NCBI RefSeq assembly: GCF_013315695.1
Contig: NZ_CP054353.1
Length of the DNA: 64,000 bases
DNA from: Escherichia coli
Lineage (GTDB): Bacteria; Pseudomonadota; Gammaproteobacteria; Enterobacterales; Enterobacteriaceae
Direction: 5' to 3' (one strand)
Shown: positions 1-13,131 of the stretch, in pieces
How the letters are laid out: each line of letters opens with the position of its first letter
Numbering within the stretch: position 1 is the first letter of the stretch
Notes under the pieces: model-generated
Database searches by the model: none
Told to the model about the DNA's origin: nothing
The model's input: the letters and a program-made list of their open reading frames with translations, nothing else
Translations under genes and position numbers: made by a program

Positions 1-2
1 AG

Positions 3-585
3 CGTAATCATCTGGAAAACGTAGCCAACGCGCTCGATAAGCATTTGCAGTATAACGTCGACAAACTGATCTTTTTGCGTAATGGCATGCGCGAAGCTCT
101 CGTGGCGCCACTGGATTTCACCTCTCTGCGTAATGCCGTAACCGAGTTCGAACAGCATCGCGACGAGCACACCTGGCAAATCGAACTCAACCGACGGCGC
201 ACCCTGCCAGTCAATGGCGTATCGGATGCATTAGTCAGCGAGGGGAATCTCCTGTCTCGCGAAAATGAAAGCCTCGACAATGAAATTACCGCTGCACTGG
301 AAGTTGGTTACTTGCTGCGACTGGCGCACAACTCCTCGTCGATGGTTGAACAGGCGGTGTATGTCTCGCGTGCTGGATTTTACGTTTCGACGCTGCCGAC
401 CTTGTTTACGCGCAATGTACCAACGCGTTATTACGGCTATGTCACCCAACCCTGGTTTATCGGCCATTCACAACGAGAAAATCGTCACCGCGCGGTACGC
501 TGGTTCACTTCGCAACCGGAACACGCCAGCAATACTGAACCGCAGGTTACCGTCAGTGTTCCGGTAGACAGTAATAACTACTGGT
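3..585 (+). pseudogene. dgcQ: dgcQ (yedQ) diguanylate cyclase, 5' fragment interrupted by prophage insertion; gene start lies upstream of window
   Basis: Frame from position 3 reads [28 protein letters not shown]...VDSNNYW, matching the periplasmic N-terminal region of E. coli DgcQ as I recall it; reading frame leaves host sequence after NNYW and stops 13 codons later in phage DNA (track ORF 45..626). Confidence 0.85.
580..585. repeat. Left copy of 6-bp target-site duplication ACTGGT
   Basis: ACTGGT at 580..585 is repeated at 38077..38082; joining the flanks restores an uninterrupted dgcQ frame (..[11 protein letters not shown]..). Confidence 0.7.
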
Positions 586-631
586 TGATCAGACATGAGA
601 TAAATGAAGGGGGATCCGTGAGATAAATAAC
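586..631. repeat. Left terminal inverted repeat with two GAGATAAAT motifs (candidate transposase binding sites)
   Basis: tgatcagacatGAGATAAATGaagggggatccgtGAGATAAATA; reverse complement of the right end reads tgatgcgccgcGCGATAAATGcactctatcttgtGCGATAAATG, with motifs at the same offsets (11 and 34). Confidence 0.65.
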
Positions 632-946
632 GAATTGGAGTGGGTTAACATGGGTTCTGGTGAACAGAACTGAAATTCTTTTCCGCTATACGATAGATAA
701 GTCGGGCATTGAAATCATCCTTCCTGGCAACTTAGAATCGAGTTTGCTGAAACATGACCCGTAACAAAAAGGATGATTCCAATGACTACTCAAAACAATA
801 AGCATGACAGCCTGGATTACTCAGAAAAGCCCAAAAGCAAGCACATTGTGACGTTCGAGCGCGATTCCGGTAGAAAAGGAGAATCGTCTTCCTCTGCCAA
901 TAAAACCACTATGCCGGCAGCTCCTGCTCCAGGGAAAAAATAAACA

Positions 947-1657
947 TCATTCATCGTTCGTTGCACGAACGCGCCTGATCTCCACTCTGGCAATCTGATC
1001 TGCTGGAATATAGGTTGCCAGAGCTCCCCAGTACTTATCAACCACGCCTTTATACTCTTCCCATTCGTTACTTCCTGAAGGGCTGCTGTGCGTGACGTAA
1101 AGAACCATATCGCCTTTATTTCCCAGGGTAAACGGACCGTTAGGCCACTCTTCAAAGTTCCCTGGCAGCCGTGACATCATACCGGAACCATCGCGAAGAA
1201 TCACTCTGACCTCGGTGACGCTGAAGCCTGTTTGATCAAACATTGCCTGCCATGCTGAGCTGGTATTGTCAGACCATGAAATATCATTATTCCACAGTAA
1301 TCTGTACATCCATTTGCGACCGTACCTGCGCCACCACGCACCGCATGTAACGGCACACAGAAGTGCTGGGGGGGTTGCCAGCCAGGCATTCAGACCTGCC
1401 CACATAACAGCCTGGTAAGCCATCATTGCTGTCAGGCCAAAAATCAGCGAAGAAAAAGTCACCTCAATGGGTTTGTGGTGATCCTTCAGCCCCACATTCG
1501 CAATAAAATACCCAATATAGCCACTGGTCAGGGTCACCAGTGTTGCCCATGGCAGATTTAATAACGAAACGTCAAACATATTTTCTCCCGGCATCCTGAA
1601 TATTACATAGAGAGCATAAAAAAAGCACGGTAAAGGGTCTACCGTGCTCTTATACAA
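947..1657 (-). CDS. Hypothetical membrane protein (three predicted hydrophobic helices plus ~120 aa soluble C-terminal domain); last gene before the left prophage end
   Basis: Track ORF 236 aa; hydrophobic segments LPWATLVTLTSGYIGYFIANV, VTFSSLIFGLTAMMAYQAVMWAGL, ALLCAVTCGAWW; real start may be the internal Met (MFDVSLL). No family recognised. Confidence 0.5.
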   Translation of the reverse strand: MYKSTVDPLPCFFYALYVIFRMPGENMFDVSLLNLPWATLVTLTSGYIGYFIANVGLKDHHKPIEVTFSSLIFGLTAMMAYQAVMWAGLNAWLATPPALLCAVTCGAWWRRYGRKWMYRLLWNNDISWSDNTSSAWQAMFDQTGFSVTEVRVILRDGSGMMSRLPGNFEEWPNGPFTLGNKGDMVLYVTHSSPSGSNEWEEYKGVVDKYWGALATYIPADQIARVEIRRVRATNDE

Positions 1658-1693
1658 TAAGGAGATTTTTGAAAGGACTTTAACAAGCAGGAA

Positions 1694-2092
1694 TTATCTG
1701 GATTTGTTAACGTCTTTCGTCTCCTCTGGCAGATCTTCATCAAACAACCTGCCCTGCATCCGATCCAGTTCTTCTTTTCTGACCCGCTTAACCACGCTGT
1801 AGACCCACTGAAGCGAAACACCAAAATTGCGGGCCAGTTCGTGGTGGTTGCGTCCGTTAAACTCCCTGAAGATTTCCCGGTCGCGCTGACTGACCTTCCA
1901 TACCATGCCCATCGGGAAATAAACGTTTTGCCCGCCCCAGACCTGCATCATTCGGTTCGCGACGGCCTGACCAATCTGGTCGGCAATTGCGGGCTCAATA
2001 TCAATAATCTCGCGAACGGTCTCAGAGGTATGCTGTGCCAGTTCCACCAGGAGTTCCGGCCCTTTACTTCGAAACTGATTCAGGTCGCTCAT
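1694..2092 (-). CDS. mor: Mor/C-family transcriptional activator (middle operon regulator-like)
   Basis: 132 aa; resembles phage Mu Mor as recalled (..HHELARNFGVSLQWVYSVVKR.. C-terminal HTH); sits after the GemA-like gene as in Mu. Confidence 0.75.
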   Translation of the reverse strand: MSDLNQFRSKGPELLVELAQHTSETVREIIDIEPAIADQIGQAVANRMMQVWGGQNVYFPMGMVWKVSQRDREIFREFNGRNHHELARNFGVSLQWVYSVVKRVRKEELDRMQGRLFDEDLPEETKDVNKSR

Positions 2093-2555
2093 GTTTTACT
2101 CCCGCAGCTCTGCGCTGCCACTTCTTCAGTTTCTCAATAACACTGCTTGCCTGTTCAGTATTGAGCCAGCGCAGGGCGCTGATGCCCGTTTCCCGCTTGA
2201 TCCACCGCGCTAATGCATTTTCTGAACGGTCACGAACAATGCCGGCAGCAGCCATTTCAAGCCATAGCGCACGGATTTTCCTGGACTGCGGATGGTTATC
2301 CAGCGGTAAACCGGAGCTGGCTTTTCTGGCAGGCTTAACGCGAAAGCCTTTCCTTTTCATGGATTCCAGCACGCAGTTTAGTTGTGTGGTATCCATTCCT
2401 TTGGTTGAGGCTTTACCGGTCAGCCCCTGTAACATCTGGCGGTAGGTGTCTTCATCCATACCCAGTTCATTACGGGCAATATGAATGAGCTGGATAAGAC
2501 GTTGTTTAGTCATCATCGTTGCTCCTTTTACCTGCGCCACCGATATAATCGACAT
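2064..2555 (-). CDS. GemA-like protein (Mu gp16 family)
   Basis: 163 aa ORF directly upstream of the mor-like gene on the same strand; sequence resembles Mu GemA/gp16-type proteins as recalled. Confidence 0.6.
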   Translation of the reverse strand: MSIISVAQVKGATMMTKQRLIQLIHIARNELGMDEDTYRQMLQGLTGKASTKGMDTTQLNCVLESMKRKGFRVKPARKASSGLPLDNHPQSRKIRALWLEMAAAGIVRDRSENALARWIKRETGISALRWLNTEQASSVIEKLKKWQRRAAGVKHERPESVSK

Positions 2556-2877
2556 ATAAAGGAAGCGCCACAGGCCAGCACAGGAACATCACCGACCAGC
2601 TAATCCAGTAGCCGGCACCACTGTAACGTGAATAAAACCCTGAACGGCGGTGCAGTTCAGCAGTACACCAACCGACAAAACAATACCAGAACAGGGCACA
2701 TACAACAGATTCAGCCGTCATTCTGAATATCCCCCCAACTGATATGAATATTACGGGCAGCAATGACAGGGTCGTTATTCCACCATGCACCTGACATGTA
2801 TTTTTCAACCTGTTCGCGTCCGGCAATAACACCAATTGTGATCCCCGGCCTGACGTTCTTAAAAAAGGCGCGGGCAA
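2506..2877 (-). CDS. Small hydrophobic protein; true start probably the internal Met near 2721
   Basis: Track ORF 123 aa; C-terminal 71 aa (MTAESVVCALFWYCFVGWC..WSVMFLCWPVALPLYV) has two hydrophobic helices; the N-terminal part overlaps ORF 2711..2941 in another frame. Confidence 0.3.
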   Translation of the reverse strand: MPAPFLRTSGRGSQLVLLPDANRLKNTCQVHGGITTLSLLPVIFISVGGIFRMTAESVVCALFWYCFVGWCTAELHRRSGFYSRYSGAGYWISWSVMFLCWPVALPLYVDYIGGAGKRSNDDD

Positions 2878-2941
2878 AAAGGTATCTGGCAGATATTCGG
2901 CAGGCTTTTAATTTCCGGCTGTTACCTGATAGCGTAATCAT
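2711..2941 (-). CDS. Hypothetical small phage protein
   Basis: 76 aa ORF tightly packed between neighbours in the early operon; no recognisable motif. Confidence 0.3.
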   Translation of the reverse strand: MITLSGNSRKLKACRISARYLFARAFFKNVRPGITIGVIAGREQVEKYMSGAWWNNDPVIAARNIHISWGDIQNDG

Positions 2942-3657
2942 CTGGCCTCCAGTTTCTGTTGTTCCTGCCCACTGACCGGGCGGTGCAGTCTGACGTTCTG
3001 CCCTTCACGAAACCCCGCATAGCGCGAGGCGTCGCCATTGCGGCTTCTTCCCGGTTTACGCGCCCTGGTGGTTTGCGTCTGCGGGTATTTATGTTCCAGC
3101 CACTGCTGCATCAGTTCACGCTCATCATCGGTCAGGGCAAAGGACTGTATTTCACTGATAACGGCCAGCACCCAGCCTTCGGCAAACTGGTCTCCACGGC
3201 TGGTGCGGGTGGCGGTTTTTATTCTTTTGTTCTGTGCACTGATATACTGCTGACGCGCCTTTTTCAGCTGACGGGCCAGCACTTCCCAGGTGTATGCAGC
3301 CAGTGCCGCACGTTCCCGGTTGCCGTAGAACCCCACAGACGGGTGCGTGCCGGGGTGAATGATGGAGTTAACACCAAATACCTCGCGGATGATGTTCATC
3401 AGGCCCAGCATGTAGCGCGGTGGACGGAGACTGCCTGTCGGCCAGTAGTGACTGATGGTTTCATCAATATCACTCATAGCAATGTCGGAATGTGTGATGC
3501 CGTGAACATCCATCAGTTTACGGGCTCGGCGCAGTGCCAGAGCGGCCTCGTGCGGGTTGCCGGATGCGGCCAGCGCCAGCAACTTTTTCAGTTTCTCAAT
3601 GTGTTTATTCTGGTCTGTCATTGTTCTGTATCTCCGGTATTTTTCTGCCGTTTCCAT
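2938..3657 (-). CDS. Hypothetical early protein, DUF2786-like N-terminal region
   Basis: 239 aa; N-terminal KLKKLLALAASGNPHEAALALRRARKLM resembles the DUF2786 motif common in Mu-like early regions (from memory). Confidence 0.55.
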   Translation of the reverse strand: METAEKYRRYRTMTDQNKHIEKLKKLLALAASGNPHEAALALRRARKLMDVHGITHSDIAMSDIDETISHYWPTGSLRPPRYMLGLMNIIREVFGVNSIIHPGTHPSVGFYGNRERAALAAYTWEVLARQLKKARQQYISAQNKRIKTATRTSRGDQFAEGWVLAVISEIQSFALTDDERELMQQWLEHKYPQTQTTRARKPGRSRNGDASRYAGFREGQNVRLHRPVSGQEQQKLEAR

Positions 3658-3833
3658 GCCCGGACAGCGTCGGACAGCTCTTTCAGGCTGTATGCTGCTT
3701 TAAGCTTTTCCCATAACCACTGTGTTGTTATGTGCATCAGCAGGGCAGCCAGGGCTGCCCCCGCACTGAGGCATGTCGCCAGGCCAGTAAGAATCAGTGT
3801 CCATGCGGTGATTTCCCTGAGTATGTCAGCCAT
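3618..3833 (-). CDS. Small membrane protein
   Basis: 71 aa with one hydrophobic helix (WTLILTGLATCLSAGAALAALLM); overlaps neighbours by a few codons, consistent with an operon. Confidence 0.4.
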   Translation of the reverse strand: MADILREITAWTLILTGLATCLSAGAALAALLMHITTQWLWEKLKAAYSLKELSDAVRAWKRQKNTGDTEQ

Positions 3834-3847
3834 TGAATGCCTCCCGG

Positions 3848-4144
3848 TTACTCGTTCGTGTAAATCACGCCCAGTCGTGCAGCCAGACGTTCCAGTTTTT
3901 TCTGTTTGTGGAAGTCAATCAGCCGGTCCATCCCCTGAAGGCGCAGTTGCTCTGTCATGATTTCCACGTCTGCCAGCTCTGCCGCGAGGTCACTTTCGCT
4001 GCCCTGTCCGTTCAGGTTGCGGGCGGCACTGGCCGCCAGTTCAGCGGCCTCTTCTGCCAGTTTCAGGGCCTGTGCGTCCGGCCCGAAACGCTGCAGGGCC
4101 AGACGGTAGAGGGCGGTGCGGGTGAGTTCGGTGTTTCGTGTCAT
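3848..4144 (-). CDS. MazG-like nucleotide pyrophosphohydrolase (small all-alpha NTP-PPase)
   Basis: 98 aa; acidic helix motifs LAEEAAELAAS and ELADVEIMTEQL resemble the EExxE/ExxD metal-binding helices of MazG/HisE-type pyrophosphatases. Confidence 0.5.
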   Translation of the reverse strand: MTRNTELTRTALYRLALQRFGPDAQALKLAEEAAELAASAARNLNGQGSESDLAAELADVEIMTEQLRLQGMDRLIDFHKQKKLERLAARLGVIYTNE

Positions 4145-4153
4145 GCCGCGCCC

Positions 4154-4426
4154 TCAGTGCTTCCGGCTGACGGTGATGTGCAGGCCGCCTTCTGCAGTGG
4201 TTTCCATCCGGTACGGCACCTCATGCTCTGCCGTGTGGGTGAGTGTGTTCATCAGTACCTGCAGGGCAGCCTCCTTTCCGTTGGTCGCCACAATGGCCTG
4301 TGTGGCCATGCTGATTAGCGCCGTCAGGACGTGATTCACATCGGTGAGGTCGCGGCATTCACACTCGTTGACATAGTGTTCAACAAGGGTTCGGGTGCGC
4401 TGTCGTGCTTCCTGTGGGGTAATCAT
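4154..4426 (-). CDS. Hypothetical early protein
   Basis: 90 aa ORF in the early operon; no motif recognised. Confidence 0.4.
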   Translation of the reverse strand: MITPQEARQRTRTLVEHYVNECECRDLTDVNHVLTALISMATQAIVATNGKEAALQVLMNTLTHTAEHEVPYRMETTAEGGLHITVSRKH

Positions 4427-4617
4427 TGCGCGTCCTCCCTGTCAGGGCGGGAGAATTCCATGACGGGCACGTCCGCCGAAAAATGCTGGCTGCAGTACGG
4501 GCAGACCAGGGTGACACGTACTGCAGGTATGTGATACTTACCGGACATCACGGCGATGGCGCTGTGAAAACGCAGGGCTGTTATATCCCTCTCGCACTGA
4601 ATACATTTAAATATCAT
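4423..4617 (-). CDS. Small zinc-ribbon-like protein
   Basis: 64 aa with CxxC ... CxxC spacing (CIQCERD ... CPYCSQ). Confidence 0.4.
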   Translation of the reverse strand: MIFKCIQCERDITALRFHSAIAVMSGKYHIPAVRVTLVCPYCSQHFSADVPVMEFSRPDREDAQ

Positions 4618-4714
4618 AATTTAATTCTCCTCTGTTTCCGGCGTGCAGAAGCCCACGGCGCTGACGCCGGAATAAAAAAGAAAATGTTTTTATTAAATAA
4701 TTAACGTGGTGTGT

Positions 4715-5245
4715 TTACTGCACATCCTGCTCAAAAGGAATTATTGAAAAATCCTCAATGTCGCTTTTAATGGAAATACCGGGAATATTTTTCACGGCCT
4801 CTTTTTCATTCAGAATGGCATCTTTATTTATTTCCTCCTTTACACGAATAAAGCGCTCAAGCCCCAGACGTCTCAGCAGTTCAATGACATTATCCGCCCC
4901 GCGAATGCTGACTGACGGCGGACGGTTTCGCCACTGCACCTCGCCGGTGGTGAGGTTAGCGAACTTCACCTTCCCGTTGCCGGTCAGTTCATCACGGTGC
5001 GCCTCACACCATGTCTGGATACCGGACTGCAGTTCGGCCATGCGTTTTTTCAGGCTCTCGGTGAGCGGGGCATAACGTGCAGTGATGTCGCCAATGGTGT
5101 CATTCATTTCTGTTTCAGCCCTGACCAGTTCACGTTGCGCGTCACCAAGCAGTCTGATTCCCTCAATGACCTCTTCGCGTGTCCCCGGCACCCAGAGTGC
5201 TGCTGCGGCTTTGATACGTTTTGCCCCTTTTGTACTTTTTGCCAT
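4715..5245 (-). CDS. gam: Gam-like host-nuclease inhibitor (DNA-end binding, Ku-like)
   Basis: 176 aa; strong resemblance to Mu Gam as recalled (AKRIKAAAALWVP.., ..CEAHRDELT.., ..RPPSVSIRG.., ..IEDFSIIPFEQ). Confidence 0.85.
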   Translation of the reverse strand: MAKSTKGAKRIKAAAALWVPGTREEVIEGIRLLGDAQRELVRAETEMNDTIGDITARYAPLTESLKKRMAELQSGIQTWCEAHRDELTGNGKVKFANLTTGEVQWRNRPPSVSIRGADNVIELLRRLGLERFIRVKEEINKDAILNEKEAVKNIPGISIKSDIEDFSIIPFEQDVQ

Positions 5246-5272
5246 ATTTTATGACTCCTCCTGTTGTGCTGA

Positions 5273-5542
5273 TTACCACAAAGATTCCGGCCACACGACG
5301 CGACAGCCGTGCAGTTCGAAAACGCCCTGACGGAAATATCCCCTGTGGTCATGTCCGGTATACAGATAACAGGCCTTTCCCTGCTCAAGCATGCGCATGC
5401 AATGCGCACTCCGGGAAACGCGGATGACAGGTTTGTTACCCCTGATGGTGATGCTTTGTACATCCGTGTTCGTCGCCTTAAGCGCCATAATGGCTGACTG
5501 CACTTTGCTGATTTGCTGGTTGATACCTGTGGTGGATTTCAT
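5273..5542 (-). CDS. Hypothetical early protein
   Basis: 89 aa ORF immediately downstream of the transposition ATPase gene. Confidence 0.4.
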   Translation of the reverse strand: MKSTTGINQQISKVQSAIMALKATNTDVQSITIRGNKPVIRVSRSAHCMRMLEQGKACYLYTGHDHRGYFRQGVFELHGCRVVWPESLW

Positions 5543-5544
5543 TA

Positions 5545-6750
5545 TTAAACCCCTTTGACAACGTCAGCGTTGACCTGTGGAACCCCGATTTCAGCGGCCA
5601 GATTCATGGCGGCTATCACCAGGTTACTGACGGCCAGCGGATACAGCAGGCTGACCATATTTTTACGATGACTTCCCGGATTGCTCAGGCGGGCACGTAT
5701 GGCATCCACTGCGCTGGCGTCCATAATGTCCGTCAGTTGTTTACCGGCCCGTTGCAGTTTGAACGTCAGAAATTCTTCAAGGTTATTGTCCAGAGGCAGA
5801 AGTTCGACCACCTCACAACGCTGAACGACTTCACGGACTTCCATATTGCGTTCAGACAGTTTTGTCGCCAGTTCCGGCTGGCCAATCAGCACGATGGACA
5901 GCAGTTTTTTGAAACCGGACTCCAGCTCAAAAAAGCGTTTGAGGTGTTTCAGTGTCGGAATGGGCAGACTGTGGGCCTCCTCAATCACCAAAACGTGGCT
6001 GAACCCCGCCTGGCTGCTGTCTTTCAGGACGCGATGCAACTGGCGAAAGCGGGCGTCCTGACTGCGTCTGATGCTTTCCAGTGGTGCGATGGTACTGATA
6101 ATGGCTTCGGCAATCGCTGCTGCCTTCAGGGTTTTCCCTTTCACATCGTTGTCTTCCATAGCGATGATGTATGGCTCGATAACAATTACCGGCGCATTCT
6201 CGCGGTTGATACGTTCAGTCAGGTCGCGGCGCAGCGTGGATTTACCCGCACCGGACTCACCGATGACGGCCATAAACCCACCATGACGGGCTGTCTGGTA
6301 CAACGCCTCACGCACGTAGCGAATGTCCGGGGTGGTGAACACATCATCAGAACCCTGCATGGCTTCATCGGCGAACGGGTCACGGAAAAGACCAAACGCT
6401 TTTTTGGTTGCTGGAAATAACACCTGTTTTTTGAGTAACATATTCTCTTCCTCACTGAGGCTCGTTTTATCTGTGGTACCCGCTGTACGGGGCGTGGCTG
6501 CGCCCTGTACAGCATCAAAACTCTTCGTTGTATCAATCCCCTGACTTTCCAGCCAGGACGCAAGACGCCGGCGCACTTCTCCGGGGCTGGTGCGGGGCCA
6601 CGCGTTATGATTCACAATCTGGGCCAGCGTGGCCTCAGAAACATCGACAGCTCTCGCCACCACCGCCTGTGGGATACGGGCCTCTTTCAGTTGCTGCTTC
6701 AGTACCAGCATGTTTTCCTCCTCAGTTGCCGTTAACAATGCTGATAACAC
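5545..6750 (-). CDS. Transposition ATPase (AAA+; functional analogue of Mu B / TniB-like)
   Basis: 401 aa; Walker A GESGAGKST and Walker B-like HVLVIEEAH; N-terminal HTH-like segment; directly downstream of the transposase. Confidence 0.85.
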   Translation of the reverse strand: MLSALLTATEEENMLVLKQQLKEARIPQAVVARAVDVSEATLAQIVNHNAWPRTSPGEVRRRLASWLESQGIDTTKSFDAVQGAATPRTAGTTDKTSLSEEENMLLKKQVLFPATKKAFGLFRDPFADEAMQGSDDVFTTPDIRYVREALYQTARHGGFMAVIGESGAGKSTLRRDLTERINRENAPVIVIEPYIIAMEDNDVKGKTLKAAAIAEAIISTIAPLESIRRSQDARFRQLHRVLKDSSQAGFSHVLVIEEAHSLPIPTLKHLKRFFELESGFKKLLSIVLIGQPELATKLSERNMEVREVVQRCEVVELLPLDNNLEEFLTFKLQRAGKQLTDIMDASAVDAIRARLSNPGSHRKNMVSLLYPLAVSNLVIAAMNLAAEIGVPQVNADVVKGV

Positions 6751-8491
6751 TGCTGCGTGCCGGCGTGGTCAGCGTGGCCATGACTTCATCCAGTGCAGCT
6801 TCCGGTACGCCGTCCGGGTACTGTGCCGTTAACTGGCGGTAATGTTCCGGCGTCCAGGTAAGGCCGTCGGCGCTGAACTTATCGCGCAGGGCTTTCGCGG
6901 CCTCCACATGAGTCATGGGACGTTGTTCAGTGCGCGGCCCGCGTACGTCAGAGGCCTGACCACGCTTCGGCATATAGGCCGGAAGTGTGGTGTCGTCGAT
7001 ATGTTTATACGGGTCAAGCCGCCCGCCGAACGGCAGCGCCTTCGCCTTGCGTGCGGCGGCTGCATCTGCGGCGTTGTCTGTACCGGTAACCAGCGCTTCA
7101 GTTTCTTTTGCCGCCATCTGTGCCGAGGTTTCCGGCAGGGCTTTGTAACTTTCGCCAAATACCGCCGCGCCTTCAGCAAAGCCAAACTCGTTCTTTCTGA
7201 CCTCTTCGACCAGGAAGAACGTCTCGTGGCCGTCCTCACCGGTCAGAACCACCTGTGCCACATCGCTGCGCCATGGGTTACGGGTAATCATCAGTTTTTC
7301 ACCAACCAGTACGCCCGGTACCGTTGATACGTCAAATTCAGTGCCCCGGAACGAGACACGAAGTTTTGGCGTGACTTTGCGGAGTTCTGGTGCCGCCACA
7401 GCCAGTTCACGACATACCTCAACGGAAGGCGCTTTTTTCAGCTGCTCAGCAGTAATCTTCAGCCAGATATCCGTGCGGGTTTTACCGTGGCGGCTGTGAA
7501 CAGCCGTGGCGTTAAAGTGGCTGCGCCATTTCGCGGCCAGCGCGTTGAGTTCTTCCAGACTGTGAACCGGCCGGAACTTCAGCCCCGGCTCCAGCTTGCG
7601 TTCGATAATGTCACGCGCCTTTTCCACCTGTCCGGTGGCGCGGGCGTTATGCGGCTTGTGCGCTATCAGGTCGATGCCCAGTGAGCGGCACATGTTTTTC
7701 GTCATACCCGCGGTGTTTGCCGAGCCGGGGTCGAGATAGAGTATTTTCGGCACGCCGTGCAGCACGTCTGCGCCGCCACGCTCCTGCATGGCGTTGATAA
7801 GCACAGAGCACAGGTTCTCACCTGATTCCGCGCCCGTCACATACTCAACGTAAATCCAGCCGCTGGCATGGTCGGTAATCTCGTAACTCCACACGCGGTC
7901 ACTGGCGATACGGGCAAGGTTAGCGGGCTTGTTCTTGTAGAACTTCGCGCTGTCCATCACCTGCAGCCCTTTATGTCCATTGCTCAGGTAGTAAAGCGTG
8001 CAGAGTGAGGCGTCAATCTGCCAGACATGATTGGGATGCAGACTGGCCACTTCGGTATGTGGTGCAGGGGCATCCAGTTGTTCCGGGTGCAGGCCATAGT
8101 TACGCAGAGCACGGCTGATGGCATCTTCAGACAACGGGAAAAACTCACTGGTGGTTTCATCTGTTCTGCCTGCGGTGATAAAGCCGTTAGCCCGCAGGGT
8201 TTCCACTGCATCTGCGATGGAATAGAGACGCTTACCGTTCTTGCGGGTGGCCTCACGCAGTGTGGCAGATATCAGCGCGGCTTCGTCGCGGGTCAGGGCG
8301 CTGCGCCCGGCATCGGCGCGTTTTTTGCGTTTATCAGTCACAGAGACCTCCTTCAGCCTGCGCAGCAGAGTGGCGCGGGACATGCCAAGTTCAGCACAGG
8401 CAGCGTCGTATATTGCACCGCGTTTACCATGCCCCGCGTCACGTGCCGCGCGGGCGACATAAACCAGTCGTTCAGTCAGGGCAGCATTCAT
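6722..8491 (-). CDS. DDE transposase (Mu A-like, integrase-core fold)
   Basis: 589 aa; N-terminal HTH, central HVWQIDASL-type DDE core; paired with an AAA+ ATPase gene as in transposable phages. Confidence 0.85.
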   Translation of the reverse strand: MNAALTERLVYVARAARDAGHGKRGAIYDAACAELGMSRATLLRRLKEVSVTDKRKKRADAGRSALTRDEAALISATLREATRKNGKRLYSIADAVETLRANGFITAGRTDETTSEFFPLSEDAISRALRNYGLHPEQLDAPAPHTEVASLHPNHVWQIDASLCTLYYLSNGHKGLQVMDSAKFYKNKPANLARIASDRVWSYEITDHASGWIYVEYVTGAESGENLCSVLINAMQERGGADVLHGVPKILYLDPGSANTAGMTKNMCRSLGIDLIAHKPHNARATGQVEKARDIIERKLEPGLKFRPVHSLEELNALAAKWRSHFNATAVHSRHGKTRTDIWLKITAEQLKKAPSVEVCRELAVAAPELRKVTPKLRVSFRGTEFDVSTVPGVLVGEKLMITRNPWRSDVAQVVLTGEDGHETFFLVEEVRKNEFGFAEGAAVFGESYKALPETSAQMAAKETEALVTGTDNAADAAAARKAKALPFGGRLDPYKHIDDTTLPAYMPKRGQASDVRGPRTEQRPMTHVEAAKALRDKFSADGLTWTPEHYRQLTAQYPDGVPEAALDEVMATLTTPARSSVISIVNGN

Positions 8492-8494
8492 TGG

Positions 8495-9409
8495 TTATGC
8501 CTCCAGCCCGTTAATCTGTGGCGTCGGCTCAGTCAGCCATGAAGGCGCTGCATTGCCTGTTGGCTCGTCCGGCAGGTCAAATGTGGAGCGCAGGCTACGC
8601 GCTGTGCTTTCCAGTTGACAGACCAGGCCTGCCATGAAGTCTCTGGGGGTATCAATCATGTTTTCAGCACAATATGCGCACAGCGTCTCAAAAGCGCTGG
8701 ACAGTCGGACGGCGATAGCAGATTCCGCCTCAACCGCTAATGCTGTTACTTCCGCCCGCAGCTTCTTAACCTCCTCATCAGGCTCAGGCGGCTGAATACG
8801 GGATTTCTTCTCCAGTCTGGTGGAGAGTGAATCTATTTTTTCATTTTTGTCGGCGAGTACGCGCTGTTGTGCTGCGTTGGTTTCGCGCGCTTCGCGCAGG
8901 GCCTGACGCAATTCACGTACTGACATGCGATCAACGTCGTCAAGCGTCAGGCCGGCAACTGTGCCGCCGTCGGCCAATTCATCAAGTTCTTCATTATCCA
9001 GAACCATCAGGTCGTACAGTTTGGCTTTCCCCAAAACGCTCAACGTTGAGCGTTTTGTTGGCTCATCACCTTCTCCCAAAAACTTCATACTGGCTTGCAT
9101 CATGCGGCGAGCAACTTGTGGTGCAAGTCCGAGTTCATTTTCTAAAATGTTTGTAAAATCACCGTGTGGCTCATTTTCTTTTAAGATGATCAGCCGCTTA
9201 CCCGCTTCCAGCATAGATTCAGCACTCTGCGCCATATAAAAACGTGCTTCGTGAACAATGCGATCACGTTCATAAGGCAGTCCATCACCAAACTGCTGCA
9301 TAATTTCCATGCGATGCTGTGTCATAGCGTTCAAATTGACATTGATGTTATCTGACAGCGGAACCTCAACATTCAGTTCAGTGTTAACGGGTGATTTGGT
9401 GCGTCCCAT
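8495..9409 (-). CDS. Hypothetical protein with coiled-coil region, between ner-like gene and transposase
   Basis: 304 aa ORF; heptad-rich central region (..RELRQALREARETNAAQQRVLADKNEKIDSLSTRLEKK..). Not recognised. Confidence 0.45.
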   Translation of the reverse strand: MGRTKSPVNTELNVEVPLSDNINVNLNAMTQHRMEIMQQFGDGLPYERDRIVHEARFYMAQSAESMLEAGKRLIILKENEPHGDFTNILENELGLAPQVARRMMQASMKFLGEGDEPTKRSTLSVLGKAKLYDLMVLDNEELDELADGGTVAGLTLDDVDRMSVRELRQALREARETNAAQQRVLADKNEKIDSLSTRLEKKSRIQPPEPDEEVKKLRAEVTALAVEAESAIAVRLSSAFETLCAYCAENMIDTPRDFMAGLVCQLESTARSLRSTFDLPDEPTGNAAPSWLTEPTPQINGLEA

Positions 9410-9419
9410 TGATTACTCC

Positions 9420-9791
9420 TTACAAACGACTACCTGAAATAACTCGTTGGTTGATTTCGTTAATACGATCCTGTGCACGCGCCATCTCGTGACTGTGAGC
9501 CATGGCGATCTGTAGTAACTGGATTCCCGGTGCGAAACGTCCGTTCTCTAATTTCATGGCCAGTCCCTCTTCAATAAGGGTATTAAGTGCTCGATTGATA
9601 TTCGCCGGGGACTCCCCCAGGGCTGATGCCAGTTCACCGTTAGAAACACCGTTCAGAGCATGACCGCGTAGAGCTTTGAGTACACGTAGGATGCGGGTCC
9701 CAGAACTGGAAATATTTACTTTACTCATGTCACATTTCCATTTTTGCAATATGTGATAACCTGTTGCATATGTGGAAAATTTATGCCGCAT
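9420..9791 (-). CDS. Putative DNA-binding protein (HTH-like)
   Basis: 123 aa; segment LNGVSNGELASALGESPANINRALNTLIEEGL resembles a winged-helix/HTH element. Confidence 0.4.
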   Translation of the reverse strand: MRHKFSTYATGYHILQKWKCDMSKVNISSSGTRILRVLKALRGHALNGVSNGELASALGESPANINRALNTLIEEGLAMKLENGRFAPGIQLLQIAMAHSHEMARAQDRINEINQRVISGSRL

Positions 9792-9969
9792 TTGACGTGG
9801 GTTTTAATCCCAGTTTTACGGCAATTTCATGGGCTTTGCCGTAACGAGCTTTGGTCTGTCCATTGAGAACACGATAGACCTCATTGCGGCTGTAGCCGTG
9901 TTCTTCGGCCCAGCGGGTAAACGTGATACCACGCTGACGGAAGAGATTTTTAACTTGTTCGGAAGTCAT
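9781..9969 (-). CDS. ner: Ner/Nlp-family DNA-binding protein
   Basis: 62 aa; resembles Ner/Nlp family (..TFTRWAEEHGYSRNEVYRVLNG..KARYGKAHEIAVKLG); first gene of the leftward early operon, divergent from the repressor. Confidence 0.75.
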   Translation of the reverse strand: MTSEQVKNLFRQRGITFTRWAEEHGYSRNEVYRVLNGQTKARYGKAHEIAVKLGLKPTSNAA

Positions 9970-10018
9970 TGTTGTCTCCTTTGTTGATGCAATGATGTTT
10001 GTTTTATATGTGATAGAT

Positions 10019-10038
10019 TATGAGAACTATTGTTCTCA
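10019..10038. promoter_or_regulatory. Candidate operator: 8-bp inverted repeat ATGAGAAC-N4-GTTCTCAT between the ner-like and repressor genes
   Basis: Perfect inverted repeat read directly from the sequence in the divergent control region. Confidence 0.35.
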
Positions 10039-10481
10039 TTGTCAATGAGGTTTGTGTGAATTTTGATTCTCTTTGCGCGTCGCGGTTCAAAGCTGAGCGT
10101 TCGCGGTTATCACTCAAGCAGGCTGAAGTAGCAGCCCTTTGTGGCGTTTCAAGAGAAATGTGGGGGAAATATGAACGAGGGGTTGCTGTTCCCGGAGGTG
10201 AGTTACTTGCAGCCTTTGCAAGAATTGGGGCCAATGTACAGTTCATTCTTACCGGGGAGTCATCAGGTATAACTTTATCACGTGATGAAATGGAGTTACT
10301 GCAGCACTACCGGCAGGCACCATTACAGGTCAAAGGTTCAGTTTTGTCGGCCTTGACTACTGGCTCCTCCAGAGAACGGGCGGAACAGGTTATTCATGGA
10401 GATGTTCTGGGGAATGTTATCAAAGGTAACGTAACCATAGGAACAGGTGGAATAATGAACAAAAATACCAAGAGAAGATGA
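10020..10481 (+). CDS. Phage repressor (XRE-family HTH); start codon uncertain, possibly GTG at 10056
   Basis: 153 aa; HTH LSLKQAEVAALCGVSREMWGKYERG; divergent from the early operon as for a c-type repressor. Confidence 0.7.
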   Translation: MRTIVLIVNEVCVNFDSLCASRFKAERSRLSLKQAEVAALCGVSREMWGKYERGVAVPGGELLAAFARIGANVQFILTGESSGITLSRDEMELLQHYRQAPLQVKGSVLSALTTGSSRERAEQVIHGDVLGNVIKGNVTIGTGGIMNKNTKRR

Positions 10482-11464
10482 GTAAAGAGAAGCAAACAGT
10501 TAACGGGGATGTGGGTAACGTTGTCAGCGGTGATGTTACCATTCATAACTATTCTGCTGACATACTTCCTTCGGCCCAGCAACCAATTTCGTTGCTGCAA
10601 AAACGCGATTTACACAGATTGATGGATGAATTGGTTGATCTGGGGGAAAGTAAGCGCGAGCTATGGATGACGATCCACACGAAACTTAATACCAAAACAG
10701 TTAATGAAATGACTGCGGCTGATTATCATGGTGCGGTTGAGATCCTTCAGAGATATGCACAACAGATCCAGAATATGAAGGACTGTAATCTTCTGGTCAG
10801 CAAAATAATGGCGCTTACTGACCCTGGGTATCGTCTTGACCGTGACAGATACTGTCTGAAGCATTTCGGTACAACCCATCTTAAAGGCCTAGACAAAGAG
10901 CAGTTGCAGGCTGTGTTTGGTTATTTTGATGATCTGCTGAATATTCGTGATGAGAGTAAAACTCTATCACCTCCATCGGAAAGCGGTGCAAAATCAGTCG
11001 CAACTGTACCAACCAGAAGCCGGAAGCCTCATGTAGTAGTGTTGGGGGGAGTGTTAGTTCTTGTAGCAATATTTTTCGTGGGAATGATTGTGTTCGCTGG
11101 TAAATGGGGAAATGCCAAAGCAGTAGCTTCTACTGAAACCAGCGTTTTTAACATTAAAACCAACGATAAAATAATAGAAGATTCCATCCCCGCACTGCGC
11201 AGCATGTTTCCAGGGTTAAATAAGTACTCAGATGATTTCCATTCGGTTTCAAGCTACAAGCAAAAAACGGGCTGGCATACCCTTAAATTTACTGTATCAG
11301 CAAAGGCATCCGTCCCCGAAAATTATAGTGTTAAGGGCAAGGTTTGTTACATTAACATAAGCCCTGATGGTAGTTATGCTCGGGTTTTGACTGCTCCATG
11401 TCGTTCACTGCTACTTGATCAGCAAAGCACTCCTGACAGTAAATACCGTTTTATTCTTAAATAG
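10478..11464 (+). CDS. Hypothetical bitopic membrane protein, translationally coupled to the repressor
   Basis: 328 aa; ATG overlaps the repressor stop (ATGA at 10478..10481); single hydrophobic helix VVVLGGVLVLVAIFFVGMIVFAG around aa 186-208; no family recognised. Confidence 0.6.
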   Translation: MSKEKQTVNGDVGNVVSGDVTIHNYSADILPSAQQPISLLQKRDLHRLMDELVDLGESKRELWMTIHTKLNTKTVNEMTAADYHGAVEILQRYAQQIQNMKDCNLLVSKIMALTDPGYRLDRDRYCLKHFGTTHLKGLDKEQLQAVFGYFDDLLNIRDESKTLSPPSESGAKSVATVPTRSRKPHVVVLGGVLVLVAIFFVGMIVFAGKWGNAKAVASTETSVFNIKTNDKIIEDSIPALRSMFPGLNKYSDDFHSVSSYKQKTGWHTLKFTVSAKASVPENYSVKGKVCYINISPDGSYARVLTAPCRSLLLDQQSTPDSKYRFILK

Positions 11465-11545
11465 AAAATAACAGCTGAATTACCATGGGATCAGAAAAAA
11501 GACAAAGGCGGCATCATGCTGCGTTCTGAAATTTTAATGTAAAAG

Positions 11546-12136
11546 GTGATGAACATGGCAGGGATTCAGGTTATCGCAGGAAGTTTTCCTAAAGGGTGGG
11601 CAAGCATGGGGTTCGGTACCATCGTGTTTGCCAAAAAAACAAAACAAGGCTTTCCTGAAAATATTGTATTAAATCTGAAAGAAGAGCTTTTATCGATTGA
11701 ACTTGCGGATAGTGAAGAGGAAAGCCGTATAGGTAAGGCGGCAGGCGCAGGTTTGCTTGGTGGATTAATCTTTGGTGGTGCAGGGTTGGTCATTGGAGGT
11801 TTGCTTGGTGCGGCGGACAAGACGAAAAAAACTATCACTTTTAAGGCAATGTTTACGGGAAATAGGTTACTTCTGGCTAAAACAGATTCAAAAACTTTTG
11901 TAAAACTTCAGTCAATTGCTGCTGATAATGCCCATAACGCATCTGTAATCAACATGAAGCAAACTAATAGGGGCGATGTTTCTTCTCGTAAACAACTAAC
12001 AGAAAATCCACAGCAGCAAGACTTACCTGCGCCCGCTACAACAGTAAAAATGACTGCCAAAGATAAGTTAGAATCGGCTCTTGGGCTGGGAATCATCGTT
12101 ATAGCTGTTTGGGCAATAATACACTTCTTTTTTTAG
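11546..12136 (+). CDS. Hypothetical membrane protein with glycine-zipper segment and C-terminal hydrophobic anchor
   Basis: 196 aa; GAGLLGGLIFGGAGLVIGGLLGAA and C-terminal LGLGIIVIAVWAIIHFFF; possible RBS aaaggtga upstream. Confidence 0.5.
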   Translation: MMNMAGIQVIAGSFPKGWASMGFGTIVFAKKTKQGFPENIVLNLKEELLSIELADSEEESRIGKAAGAGLLGGLIFGGAGLVIGGLLGAADKTKKTITFKAMFTGNRLLLAKTDSKTFVKLQSIAADNAHNASVINMKQTNRGDVSSRKQLTENPQQQDLPAPATTVKMTAKDKLESALGLGIIVIAVWAIIHFFF

Positions 12137-12137
12137 T

Positions 12138-12160
12138 GCAGCCCTTCAGGGCTGTTTCTG
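12138..12160. terminator. Hairpin between convergent genes (possible bidirectional terminator)
   Basis: gcagccc-ttca-gggctg stem-loop followed by tttctgtt, between ORF 11546..12136 (+) and 12174..12650 (-). Confidence 0.4.
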
Positions 12161-12173
12161 TTCAGGAGGTATC

Positions 12174-12650
12174 TTAAGGATTATCCGGGGCGTTTTCCTG
12201 TTTGCCGTACTTCGGAGACGAACAACATTCTGTTGGCTGACCGGTGAGTTTACGTAACTCCTTCATGAGCAGCTCCTGATCGTAAACTGTCATCAGTGCC
12301 GCAATGGTGGCATGCAGTGCATCGGGCAGTATCCAGGGTTGCCGGCCCGTGGGGCATATAACATCCAGCAGCTCATTCGTCCGACAGATACGCTCCTCGC
12401 CGTATGACAACAGGCCCTGTCCCGTGTATTCCTCTAGCCTGATCACTGTGCCACCCCGTGGCTTCTGCCAGGTCGTCAGATCTTCGCCATTCATACGGCG
12501 CTCATTCTCCACGTCAGCAGCATCGACAATGACGCTGTTTCCGAGTTCCTGTTTCACCATCTCTTCTATCCGCGCCAGTACGTAACTTTTACCGCTGCCC
12601 ACAGGACCGGACACAGTGACAGTGATGACCGGATTCAGTGTGTGCGTCAT
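12174..12650 (-). CDS. Small P-loop NTPase / kinase-like protein
   Basis: 158 aa; Walker A GPVGSGKS at residues 15-22; convergent with the preceding membrane-protein gene. Confidence 0.55.
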   Translation of the reverse strand: MTHTLNPVITVTVSGPVGSGKSYVLARIEEMVKQELGNSVIVDAADVENERRMNGEDLTTWQKPRGGTVIRLEEYTGQGLLSYGEERICRTNELLDVICPTGRQPWILPDALHATIAALMTVYDQELLMKELRKLTGQPTECCSSPKYGKQENAPDNP

Positions 12651-12747
12651 ATCGTATTCTCCTCTGTGAATAATTCATCGTTTATCCTGCACATCCCGTA
12701 TCCCCGGCTCTCTTAACGCGCTTTAAAATCCTTCGCGCCCTGTATTT

Positions 12748-13131
12748 GTGATGCTGTCTCCACCAAACGAGGAGACACACATGAAAAACCTGAAAAAATT
12801 CATTCCCCCTGTTAAAAAACCTCGCCTCAGCGGCTGGCTGCTGACCTCAGTGCTGTTGCTGGGCACCATCGCTCTGGTCTCACCACAGCAGCTGCCTGTT
12901 GTGATCTACAAGCTGGCACTCATCACGCTGGCAGCAGTGCTGGGTTACTGGCTTGACCGTTCGCTCTTCCCCAAAGCCCGTCCCGGTCAGTACCTGAAAC
13001 ATGACGACAGGCTGATGGCTGAAGGGCGTTTCCCGGTACAGACCGGCCTTCACCTGGTGTTTTCTGCTGCGTTAATCCGCCGTGCACTGATTGTTGCAGC
13101 GGTCTGCCTGGCTGTTGCGATGGGGCTTTAA
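12748..13131 (+). CDS. Putative holin / small membrane protein upstream of the endolysin
   Basis: 127 aa with 2-3 hydrophobic helices (LLTSVLLLGTIALV, LALITLAAVLGYW, LIVAAVCLAVAMGL); position immediately before the endolysin gene. Confidence 0.45.
   Translation: MMLSPPNEETHMKNLKKFIPPVKKPRLSGWLLTSVLLLGTIALVSPQQLPVVIYKLALITLAAVLGYWLDRSLFPKARPGQYLKHDDRLMAEGRFPVQTGLHLVFSAALIRRALIVAAVCLAVAMGL

Follow-up and report, generated by a model that had tools for sequence, protein, structure and literature searches.

In phage Mu, the genes for the transposase A and the ATPase B are followed by the semi-essential early (SEE) region (kil to gemA/mor, Mup05-Mup17), a series of small, tightly packed, and dispensable genes with gam within it and gemA and mor at its end. 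We analyzed a stretch of 64,000 nucleotides from the Escherichia coli contig NZ_CP054353.1 (assembly GCF_013315695.1), called the window below, and found that it carries a BcepMu-type Mu-like prophage which is common in E. coli. Nine small genes of this prophage, at positions 2506-5542 on the minus strand, form an array with the same position and orientation as the SEE region of Mu (Table 1). The gene order is transposase, B, the nine small genes, gp16, and Mor, all on the minus strand, and the entire coding potential of the window between 1.7 and 9.4 kb lies on this strand. The original prediction had read the array as early-region genes, and its position, after A/B and before gemA-mor, agrees with an early region in a transposable prophage of the Mu type. 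In our best explanation of the whole, which we consider quite probable, the array forms the accessory ("semi-essential") block in the early operon of a prophage of the BcepMu kind, and its products would include Gam as a shield of DNA ends and a MazG-like nucleoside triphosphate (NTP) pyrophosphohydrolase.

The layout of the array matches the SEE region of Mu and its content is mostly lineage-specific, because Mu shares only Gam (61% identity), GemA (36%), and Mor (31%) with it. No homologue of the remaining small proteins, including the MazG-like protein, was detectable in phage Mu. The first product of the array, an 89-amino-acid (aa) protein, occupies the place held by Kil in Mu and showed no significant similarity to Mu Kil. 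The transposition genes also differ. The transposase and B protein of the window prophage are of the BcepMu type, with an integrase-core transposase and an ExeA-family ATPase, whereas Mu uses MuA and MuB. The target duplication is 6 bp long in the window prophage, in contrast to 5 bp in Mu.

The prophage is 37.5 kb long and spans positions 586-38076. Its terminal sequences are TGAT...ATCA, GATAAAT(G/A) motifs recur close to both ends, and a 6-bp direct target duplication, ACTGGT, flanks the element at 580-585 and 38077-38082. The insertion interrupts dgcQ (yedQ), a diguanylate cyclase gene that regulates cellulose synthesis, leaving dgcQ fragments at 45-585 and from 38077 to about 39026. In E. 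coli strain 2822 of sequence type 131 (ST131), the same prophage sits at another site, within a gene of a lambdoid prophage, and such differing sites in different strains are as transposition predicts. The ends of the TG...CA type, the short target duplication, and the variable insertion sites are thus those of a transposable phage. A close relative is Escherichia phage PhiKM (PQ738613, Bcepmuvirus), which has 98% nucleotide identity over 96% of window positions 2000-6000 and an identical gene order in the early region. The early region is 100% identical in the prophages of several complete E. coli genomes, including strain 2822, and a 4-kb query matched 639 of 5426 complete E. coli genomes, with at least 80% of the query covered in 617 of these.

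The nine open reading frames (ORFs) of the array are real genes under selection. The RefSeq annotation by the Prokaryotic Genome Annotation Pipeline (PGAP) of the 100%-identical prophage in strain 2822 served as independent gene calls, and the ORFs named in the original prediction were present among these calls, on the minus strand and at the same coordinates. Each of the nine proteins matches a PHROG family (E-values from 1e-14 to 1e-77), and a Shine-Dalgarno motif of the GGAG/GAGG type precedes each of the nine starts. Median ratios of nonsynonymous to synonymous substitution rates (dN/dS), computed against diverged orthologues from viral contigs, were 0.11-0.38 across all nine genes, with 1-3 usable pairs behind the values for some genes. 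Spurious or chance ORFs were ruled out by these PHROG matches, dN/dS ratios, and Shine-Dalgarno motifs, and lack of conservation, which would have spoken against the predicted array, was not what we found.

The predicted short and tightly packed arrangement also stood. The distances between genes range from -11 to +27 nt with a single exception, and stops and starts overlap as ATGA at three junctions. One boundary in the original prediction did not stand, namely a single gene at 2506-2877 encoding 123 aa. This ORF was replaced by two genes, 2506-2721 and 2711-2941, because PGAP, the PHROG matches, and frame-specific conservation all support two genes. The match to phrog_6436 aligns solely from Met53 of the 123-aa ORF, and the 76-aa gene overlaps the N-terminal extension of that ORF. 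The exceptional distance measures 97 nt and separates gam from the zinc-ribbon gene (4618-4714), the sole sizeable gap in the array. Within this spacer, an AT-rich run gives way to a GC-rich hairpin (inverted repeat CCGGCGT...ACGCCGG) that lacks a T-tract, and the spacer could serve for internal regulation or processing. No RNA family of Rfam was matched in window positions 1-13000, which include the spacer. None of ten proteins matched an NCBIfam model.

The likely boundaries of the early transcript were assigned by consensus matches. A hairpin with a T-run lies directly after mor and is the likely end of the transcript. The best promoter match in the divergent control region between a Ner-like gene on the minus strand (9781-9969) and a repressor-like helix-turn-helix (HTH) gene on the plus strand (10020-10481) is the sigma-70-like site at 10017-10045, the candidate early promoter. 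After induction or infection, one leftward transcript would start from this control region near 10.0 kb, pass the regulator genes, the transposase, and the B ATPase, continue across the nine small genes into gemA and mor, and stop at 1651-1621. The overlapping stops and starts suggest that the small genes would be translationally coupled. No internal promoter above background was found within the array by a promoter-consensus scan. Since the array lies inside the early operon and has no such promoter, it should be repressed in the lysogen. That the array is instead lysogenic-conversion or defence cargo, for example for superinfection exclusion by small membrane proteins, and does not serve lytic early functions is very improbable. 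Two of the array products are small membrane proteins, and defence genes are often found in the accessory regions of prophages, but the early operon encloses all nine genes, with the transposase and B before them and mor after them, and no PADLOC defence model was matched by any early-region protein.

The array is a mosaic accessory block whose gene content varies among relatives. In a survey that used the B ATPase as its anchor, B and gp16 occurred together in 73 loci, which gave 52 distinct architectures, and the interval from B to gp16 ranged from 309 to 4296 nt. The 89-aa protein, which directly follows the B-like ATPase, is the most widely kept product of the array. Gam is rarer among the relatives than the MazG-like gene (17/52 vs 41/52). 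In IMG/VR loci anchored on the MazG-like gene, this gene lies between B and gemA in 80 of 80 cases, upstream of gp16 and Mor and on the same strand, and the early gene order is the same in the 73 B-anchored and the 80 MazG-anchored loci. A second lineage (locus L072, with Klebsiella phage Kp4866-3 as a relative), whose transposase is of the MuA type and is accompanied by MuB, carries the MazG-like gene at the same position, and its MazG domain has a C-terminal extension.

Two products of the array have a biochemistry that can be assigned from their sequences, namely Gam and the MazG-like protein. The protein at 4715-5245 had been described as Gam-like, and it matches Pfam PF07352 (Phage_Mu_Gam) at 2.2e-40, Mu gp10 Gam with 61% identity over 169 aa (E-value 5e-72), and the solved structure of a putative Gam (PDB 2p2u) at 2.8e-7. 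By these similarities it is Gam, predicted to be a Ku-like protector of double-stranded DNA ends and an inhibitor of host nucleases. Gam would bind the ends of linear phage DNA and shield them from RecBCD-type nucleases, a role assigned here because it is established for Mu Gam, with which the protein is 61% identical. Among the nine products, an anti-defence role is established for Gam alone, and in phage Mu, so that for the window protein it would hold by analogy. Many relatives without Gam have a protein of about 200 aa in its place, as in Klebsiella phage KP12 (locus L003, 2616-3227) and in L072 (4047-4667), where the protein belongs to phrog_846.

The 98-aa MazG-like protein belongs to phrog_2245, "nucleoside triphosphate pyrophosphohydrolase", and PGAP gives it the same name. 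The original prediction had pointed to acidic helix motifs of the MazG/HisE kind in this protein and had set their absence on alignment as a reason to drop the assignment. A profile search of 1.84 billion representative sequences found 10,508 family proteins at E-values of 1e-3 or lower, mostly 90-110 aa long, and we aligned 69 diverse members with 31-70% identity to the query. Q25, E31, D59, and Q66 are invariant among these relatives, at least 90% of which keep each of E32, E35, and E56, and K83/R86 are conserved near the C-terminus. The predicted metal-binding tetrad, E32-A-A-E35 and E56-L-A-D59, has the form E-x-x-E, 20 residues, E-x-x-D. A Mg-binding tetrad has been described for the MazG of Mycobacterium tuberculosis (Glu119/Glu122/Glu138/Asp141) and the dUTPase of Campylobacter jejuni (PMC10014863), and the E-x-x-E...E-x-x-D spacing of our protein agrees with both. 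Pfam MazG (PF03819) was touched by 31 of the 69 relatives at an E-value of 0.1 or lower and by 4 at 1e-3 or lower, and in the match of the 69-sequence profile to the solved MazG-type protein 5ie9 the acidic motifs align in register. The modelled fold is all-alpha, in common with the solved MazG/HisE proteins, and Foldseek ranked DCTPP1 and iMazG at the top.

From sequence and model together, we conclude that the 98-aa protein probably falls, at the superfamily level only, within the all-alpha NTP pyrophosphohydrolase (MazG/HisE/dimeric dUTPase) superfamily, with the catalytic metal site kept, and the predicted motifs and fold hold at that level. We also conclude that the family is a distinct subfamily outside the curated Pfam/NCBIfam models and is captured by PHROGs. 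The described small single-domain MazG-like proteins are SSO3215/1vmg of Sulfolobus solfataricus, the integron protein iMazG (2q5z/2q73), YpjD of Bacillus subtilis (2gta), 5ie9 of Bacillus, and DCTPP1/RS21-C6. Our family is like them in the EExxE...ExxD motif, although the similarity is marginal, and differs in its own invariant Q25 and Q66 and the conserved C-terminal K83/R86. The protein probably oligomerizes like other small MazG proteins. It would bind Mg2+ through E32/E35/E56/D59 and cleave the alpha-beta bond of a nucleoside triphosphate, releasing the nucleoside monophosphate and pyrophosphate. Our best guess for its role is that it trims or cleans the (d)NTP pool during replicative transposition, with the substrate inferred. 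Our literature search returned nothing specific on MazG in transposable phages.

Several results weigh against the overall interpretation. The best Pfam match of the 98-aa protein itself is PRA-PH (PF01503) with an E-value of 0.029, which fails the threshold, and no NCBIfam model matched it. Neither phmmer with the single protein nor a narrow 20-sequence profile reached a MazG structure in PDB, and the 69-sequence profile reached 5ie9, 2q73/2q5z, 2gta, and 1vmg weakly, at E-values of 0.013-0.5. The Foldseek E-values are weak, from 0.18 upward. Alignment of the family profile to the single sequence of E. coli MazG by hhalign gave a probability of 0.7%, which is not significant. The MazG-like gene is not required for Mu-type replication, because phage Mu has no homologue. 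The characterized phage MazG proteins differ in substrate, as discussed below. The promoter and the terminator of the early operon are consensus matches alone.

The AlphaFold model of the 98-aa protein has a predicted local distance difference test (pLDDT) score of 96 and consists essentially of two long helices. Together with the weak Pfam and hhalign support, it would also suit a non-catalytic helical hairpin, a binding or regulatory factor merely resembling MazG. We regard this as highly unlikely, as the most conserved residues are the MazG metal positions E31, E32, E35, E56, and D59 with two glutamines, a pattern unexpected for a coiled coil, and nearly half of the relatives touch the Pfam MazG model.

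A different role for a catalytic MazG-like protein is suggested by Atd1 of Pectobacterium phage PcCB7V. Atd1 is like our protein in being phage-encoded among early or accessory genes, with a single MazG-type domain. This domain hydrolyses guanosine tetraphosphate (ppGpp) and gives protection from the toxicity of TIR-STING and retron-TIR (bioRxiv 10.1101/2022.06.09.495361). By this precedent, the 98-aa protein might be a counter-defence or host-takeover enzyme that hydrolyses (p)ppGpp or a nucleotide immune signal and so, at an early lytic stage, blocks the barriers raised by abortive infection or the stringent response. Two features would fit such a role, the place of its gene beside that of the anti-nuclease Gam in the early operon and its retention in most architectures of an otherwise mosaic block. 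However, a scan of phAPEC8 (Phapecoctavirus) positions 1-50 kb with the hidden Markov model of the family gave no match, a tblastn search of the phage collection with E. coli MazG recovered two-domain MazG genes alone, and no sequence link to Atd1 was made. Atd1 homologues have been reported, by AntiDefenseFinder, solely in virulent phages of Phapecoctavirus, Justusliebigvirus, and Lazarusvirus (PMC11724313). Another phage MazG, from a cyanophage, prefers dGTP/dCTP and leaves ppGpp untouched (PMC6850273), and (d)NTP hydrolysis is the default chemistry of the superfamily. We consider the counter-defence role unlikely on balance and prefer (d)NTP hydrolysis. It is likewise doubtful that the MazG-like enzyme is a dedicated counter-defence or host-takeover hydrolase of transposable phages in general, acting on (p)ppGpp, an immune signal, or a defence-relevant dNTP, and that the 89-aa protein is a new host-takeover factor with the role of Kil. 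Anti-defence and host-takeover functions in the array are a reasonable generalization from precedent, namely Mu Gam and the Atd1 of unrelated virulent phages, and we treat them as a hypothesis by analogy.

The other seven genes are real, selected, and lineage-specific accessory genes. The 64-aa protein has the motif C5-x2-C8 ... C39-P-x-C42, and none of the four cysteines varies across 24 distinct orthologues whose identity is 30-100%. No Pfam family was matched, and by its cysteines the protein is a predicted zinc ribbon, as had been proposed. Small membrane proteins had also been proposed, and hydropathy supports two of them. The product of 3618-3833 has one hydrophobic helix at about residues 12-33 (hydropathy peak 1.88-1.98). 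The product of 2506-2721 has two hydrophobic, aromatic-rich helices (peaks 1.65 and 1.61), which are probably two transmembrane segments. The 227-aa protein combines PF10979 (DUF2786, 4.4e-11) with PF23771 (DUF7168, 1.6e-25), a pair present in 64 of 64 homologues. PGAP places its start at 3621, and a longer ORF extends to 3657. A PDB sequence search with this protein gave no match, and our literature search returned nothing specific on the function of DUF2786. The 90-aa gene is among those whose start overlaps the preceding stop as ATGA. No Pfam, PDB, or PADLOC match was found for the 89-aa, 90-aa, and 76-aa proteins.

Table 1. Features of the early region in window coordinates, with the number of surveyed architectures that keep each array gene and the dN/dS ratio against diverged orthologues (usable pairs in brackets where given)
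Feature	Coordinates	Strand	Match or basis	dN/dS	Kept (of 52)
Candidate early promoter, sigma-70-like	10017-10045	minus	TTGACA-17-CATAAT, 11/12 positions match		
B-like transposition ATPase, ExeA family (upstream array boundary)	5545-6711	minus	phrog_296 "DNA transposition protein" 6.6e-94; PGAP "ExeA family protein"		
89-aa protein	5273-5542	minus	phrog_2041 3.1e-36	0.21 (3 pairs)	50
Gam, 176 aa	4715-5245	minus	phrog_491 6.7e-73	0.11	17
Predicted zinc-ribbon protein, 64 aa	4423-4617	minus	phrog_3401 1.2e-40	0.17	35
90-aa protein	4154-4426	minus	phrog_3691 1.4e-55	0.38	17
MazG-like protein, 98 aa	3848-4144	minus	phrog_2245 5.5e-34		41
Predicted single-pass membrane protein, 71 aa	3618-3833	minus	phrog_3958 1.1e-41	0.38 (1 pair)	8
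DUF2786 + DUF7168 protein, 227 aa	2938-3621	minus	Pfam PF10979 + PF23771		37
Basic protein, 76 aa	2711-2941	minus	phrog_3681 4.1e-54; PGAP call	0.13	17
Two-helix hydrophobic protein, 71 aa	2506-2721	minus	phrog_6436; PGAP call	0.16	36
gp16/GemA homologue (downstream array boundary)	2064-2513	minus	Pfam GemA 7.7e-41		
Mor-family transcription activator, last early-operon gene	1694-2092	minus	phrog_532 1.3e-44		
Terminator-like hairpin, 14-bp stem + T-run	1621-1651	minus	Consensus match alone, directly after mor		

Other parts of the prophage carry further cargo. Two genes lie at the left end beyond the early terminator. The one at 947-1579 on the minus strand encodes a protein of 210 aa (phrog_12870) whose N-terminal segments are hydrophobic, found in 8 of the 52 related architectures. 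The other, at 783-944 on the plus strand, is a convergent 53-aa ORF that belongs to phrog_15726 and has a promoter-like site at 709-738. Neither gene had a PADLOC match. PhiKM has another gene in that place, unlike that of the window prophage, and the left end looks like a variable moron slot. The immunity region (10020-12650) is a low-GC block, with a GC fraction of 0.43 vs about 0.55 in the remaining prophage. Downstream of the repressor-like HTH gene are genes for two proteins with hydrophobic segments, of 328 aa (10478-11464) and 196 aa (11546-12136), and a gene on the opposite strand for a 158-aa protein (12174-12650) which PGAP names "ABC transporter ATPase". Weak HTH matches aside, the cargo of the immunity region gave no significant PADLOC match, and its PHROG families carry no function label. 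These genes downstream of the repressor are candidates for cargo expressed in the lysogen.

At the right end, a Gin-like recombinase gene adjoins tail-fibre and assembly genes of opposite orientation (about 37426-37998, mapped from the annotation of strain MSB1_4I), an arrangement that suggests a host-range segment able to invert, as in Mu. The match of the window to strain MSB1_4I falls into two pieces with 92% coverage, and the orientation of this segment may be the reason. Compared with the prophage, the GenBank record of PhiKM is circularly permuted and partial, and in it the left-end genes directly follow tail genes. Its annotation labels the MazG-like gene "hypothetical", and it misses the zinc-ribbon gene and calls an ORF on the opposite strand instead (locus L001, 7484-7705).

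The finding is accurate yet ordinary, as the array belongs to a common Mu-like prophage, already sequenced and annotated, and makes up its accessory early region. The annotations of Gam, the MazG-like protein, and the DUF2786 protein are already in RefSeq, and the current understanding is not overturned. The MazG-like enzyme is directly testable by nucleotide hydrolysis assays. Screens for host-takeover or anti-defence activities could sensibly start from these nine conserved small proteins, which form a compact and well-delimited set. About one complete E. coli genome in eight carries the prophage, ST131 clinical strains among them, and because it is so common, its early genes would be expressed in many clinical isolates on induction.

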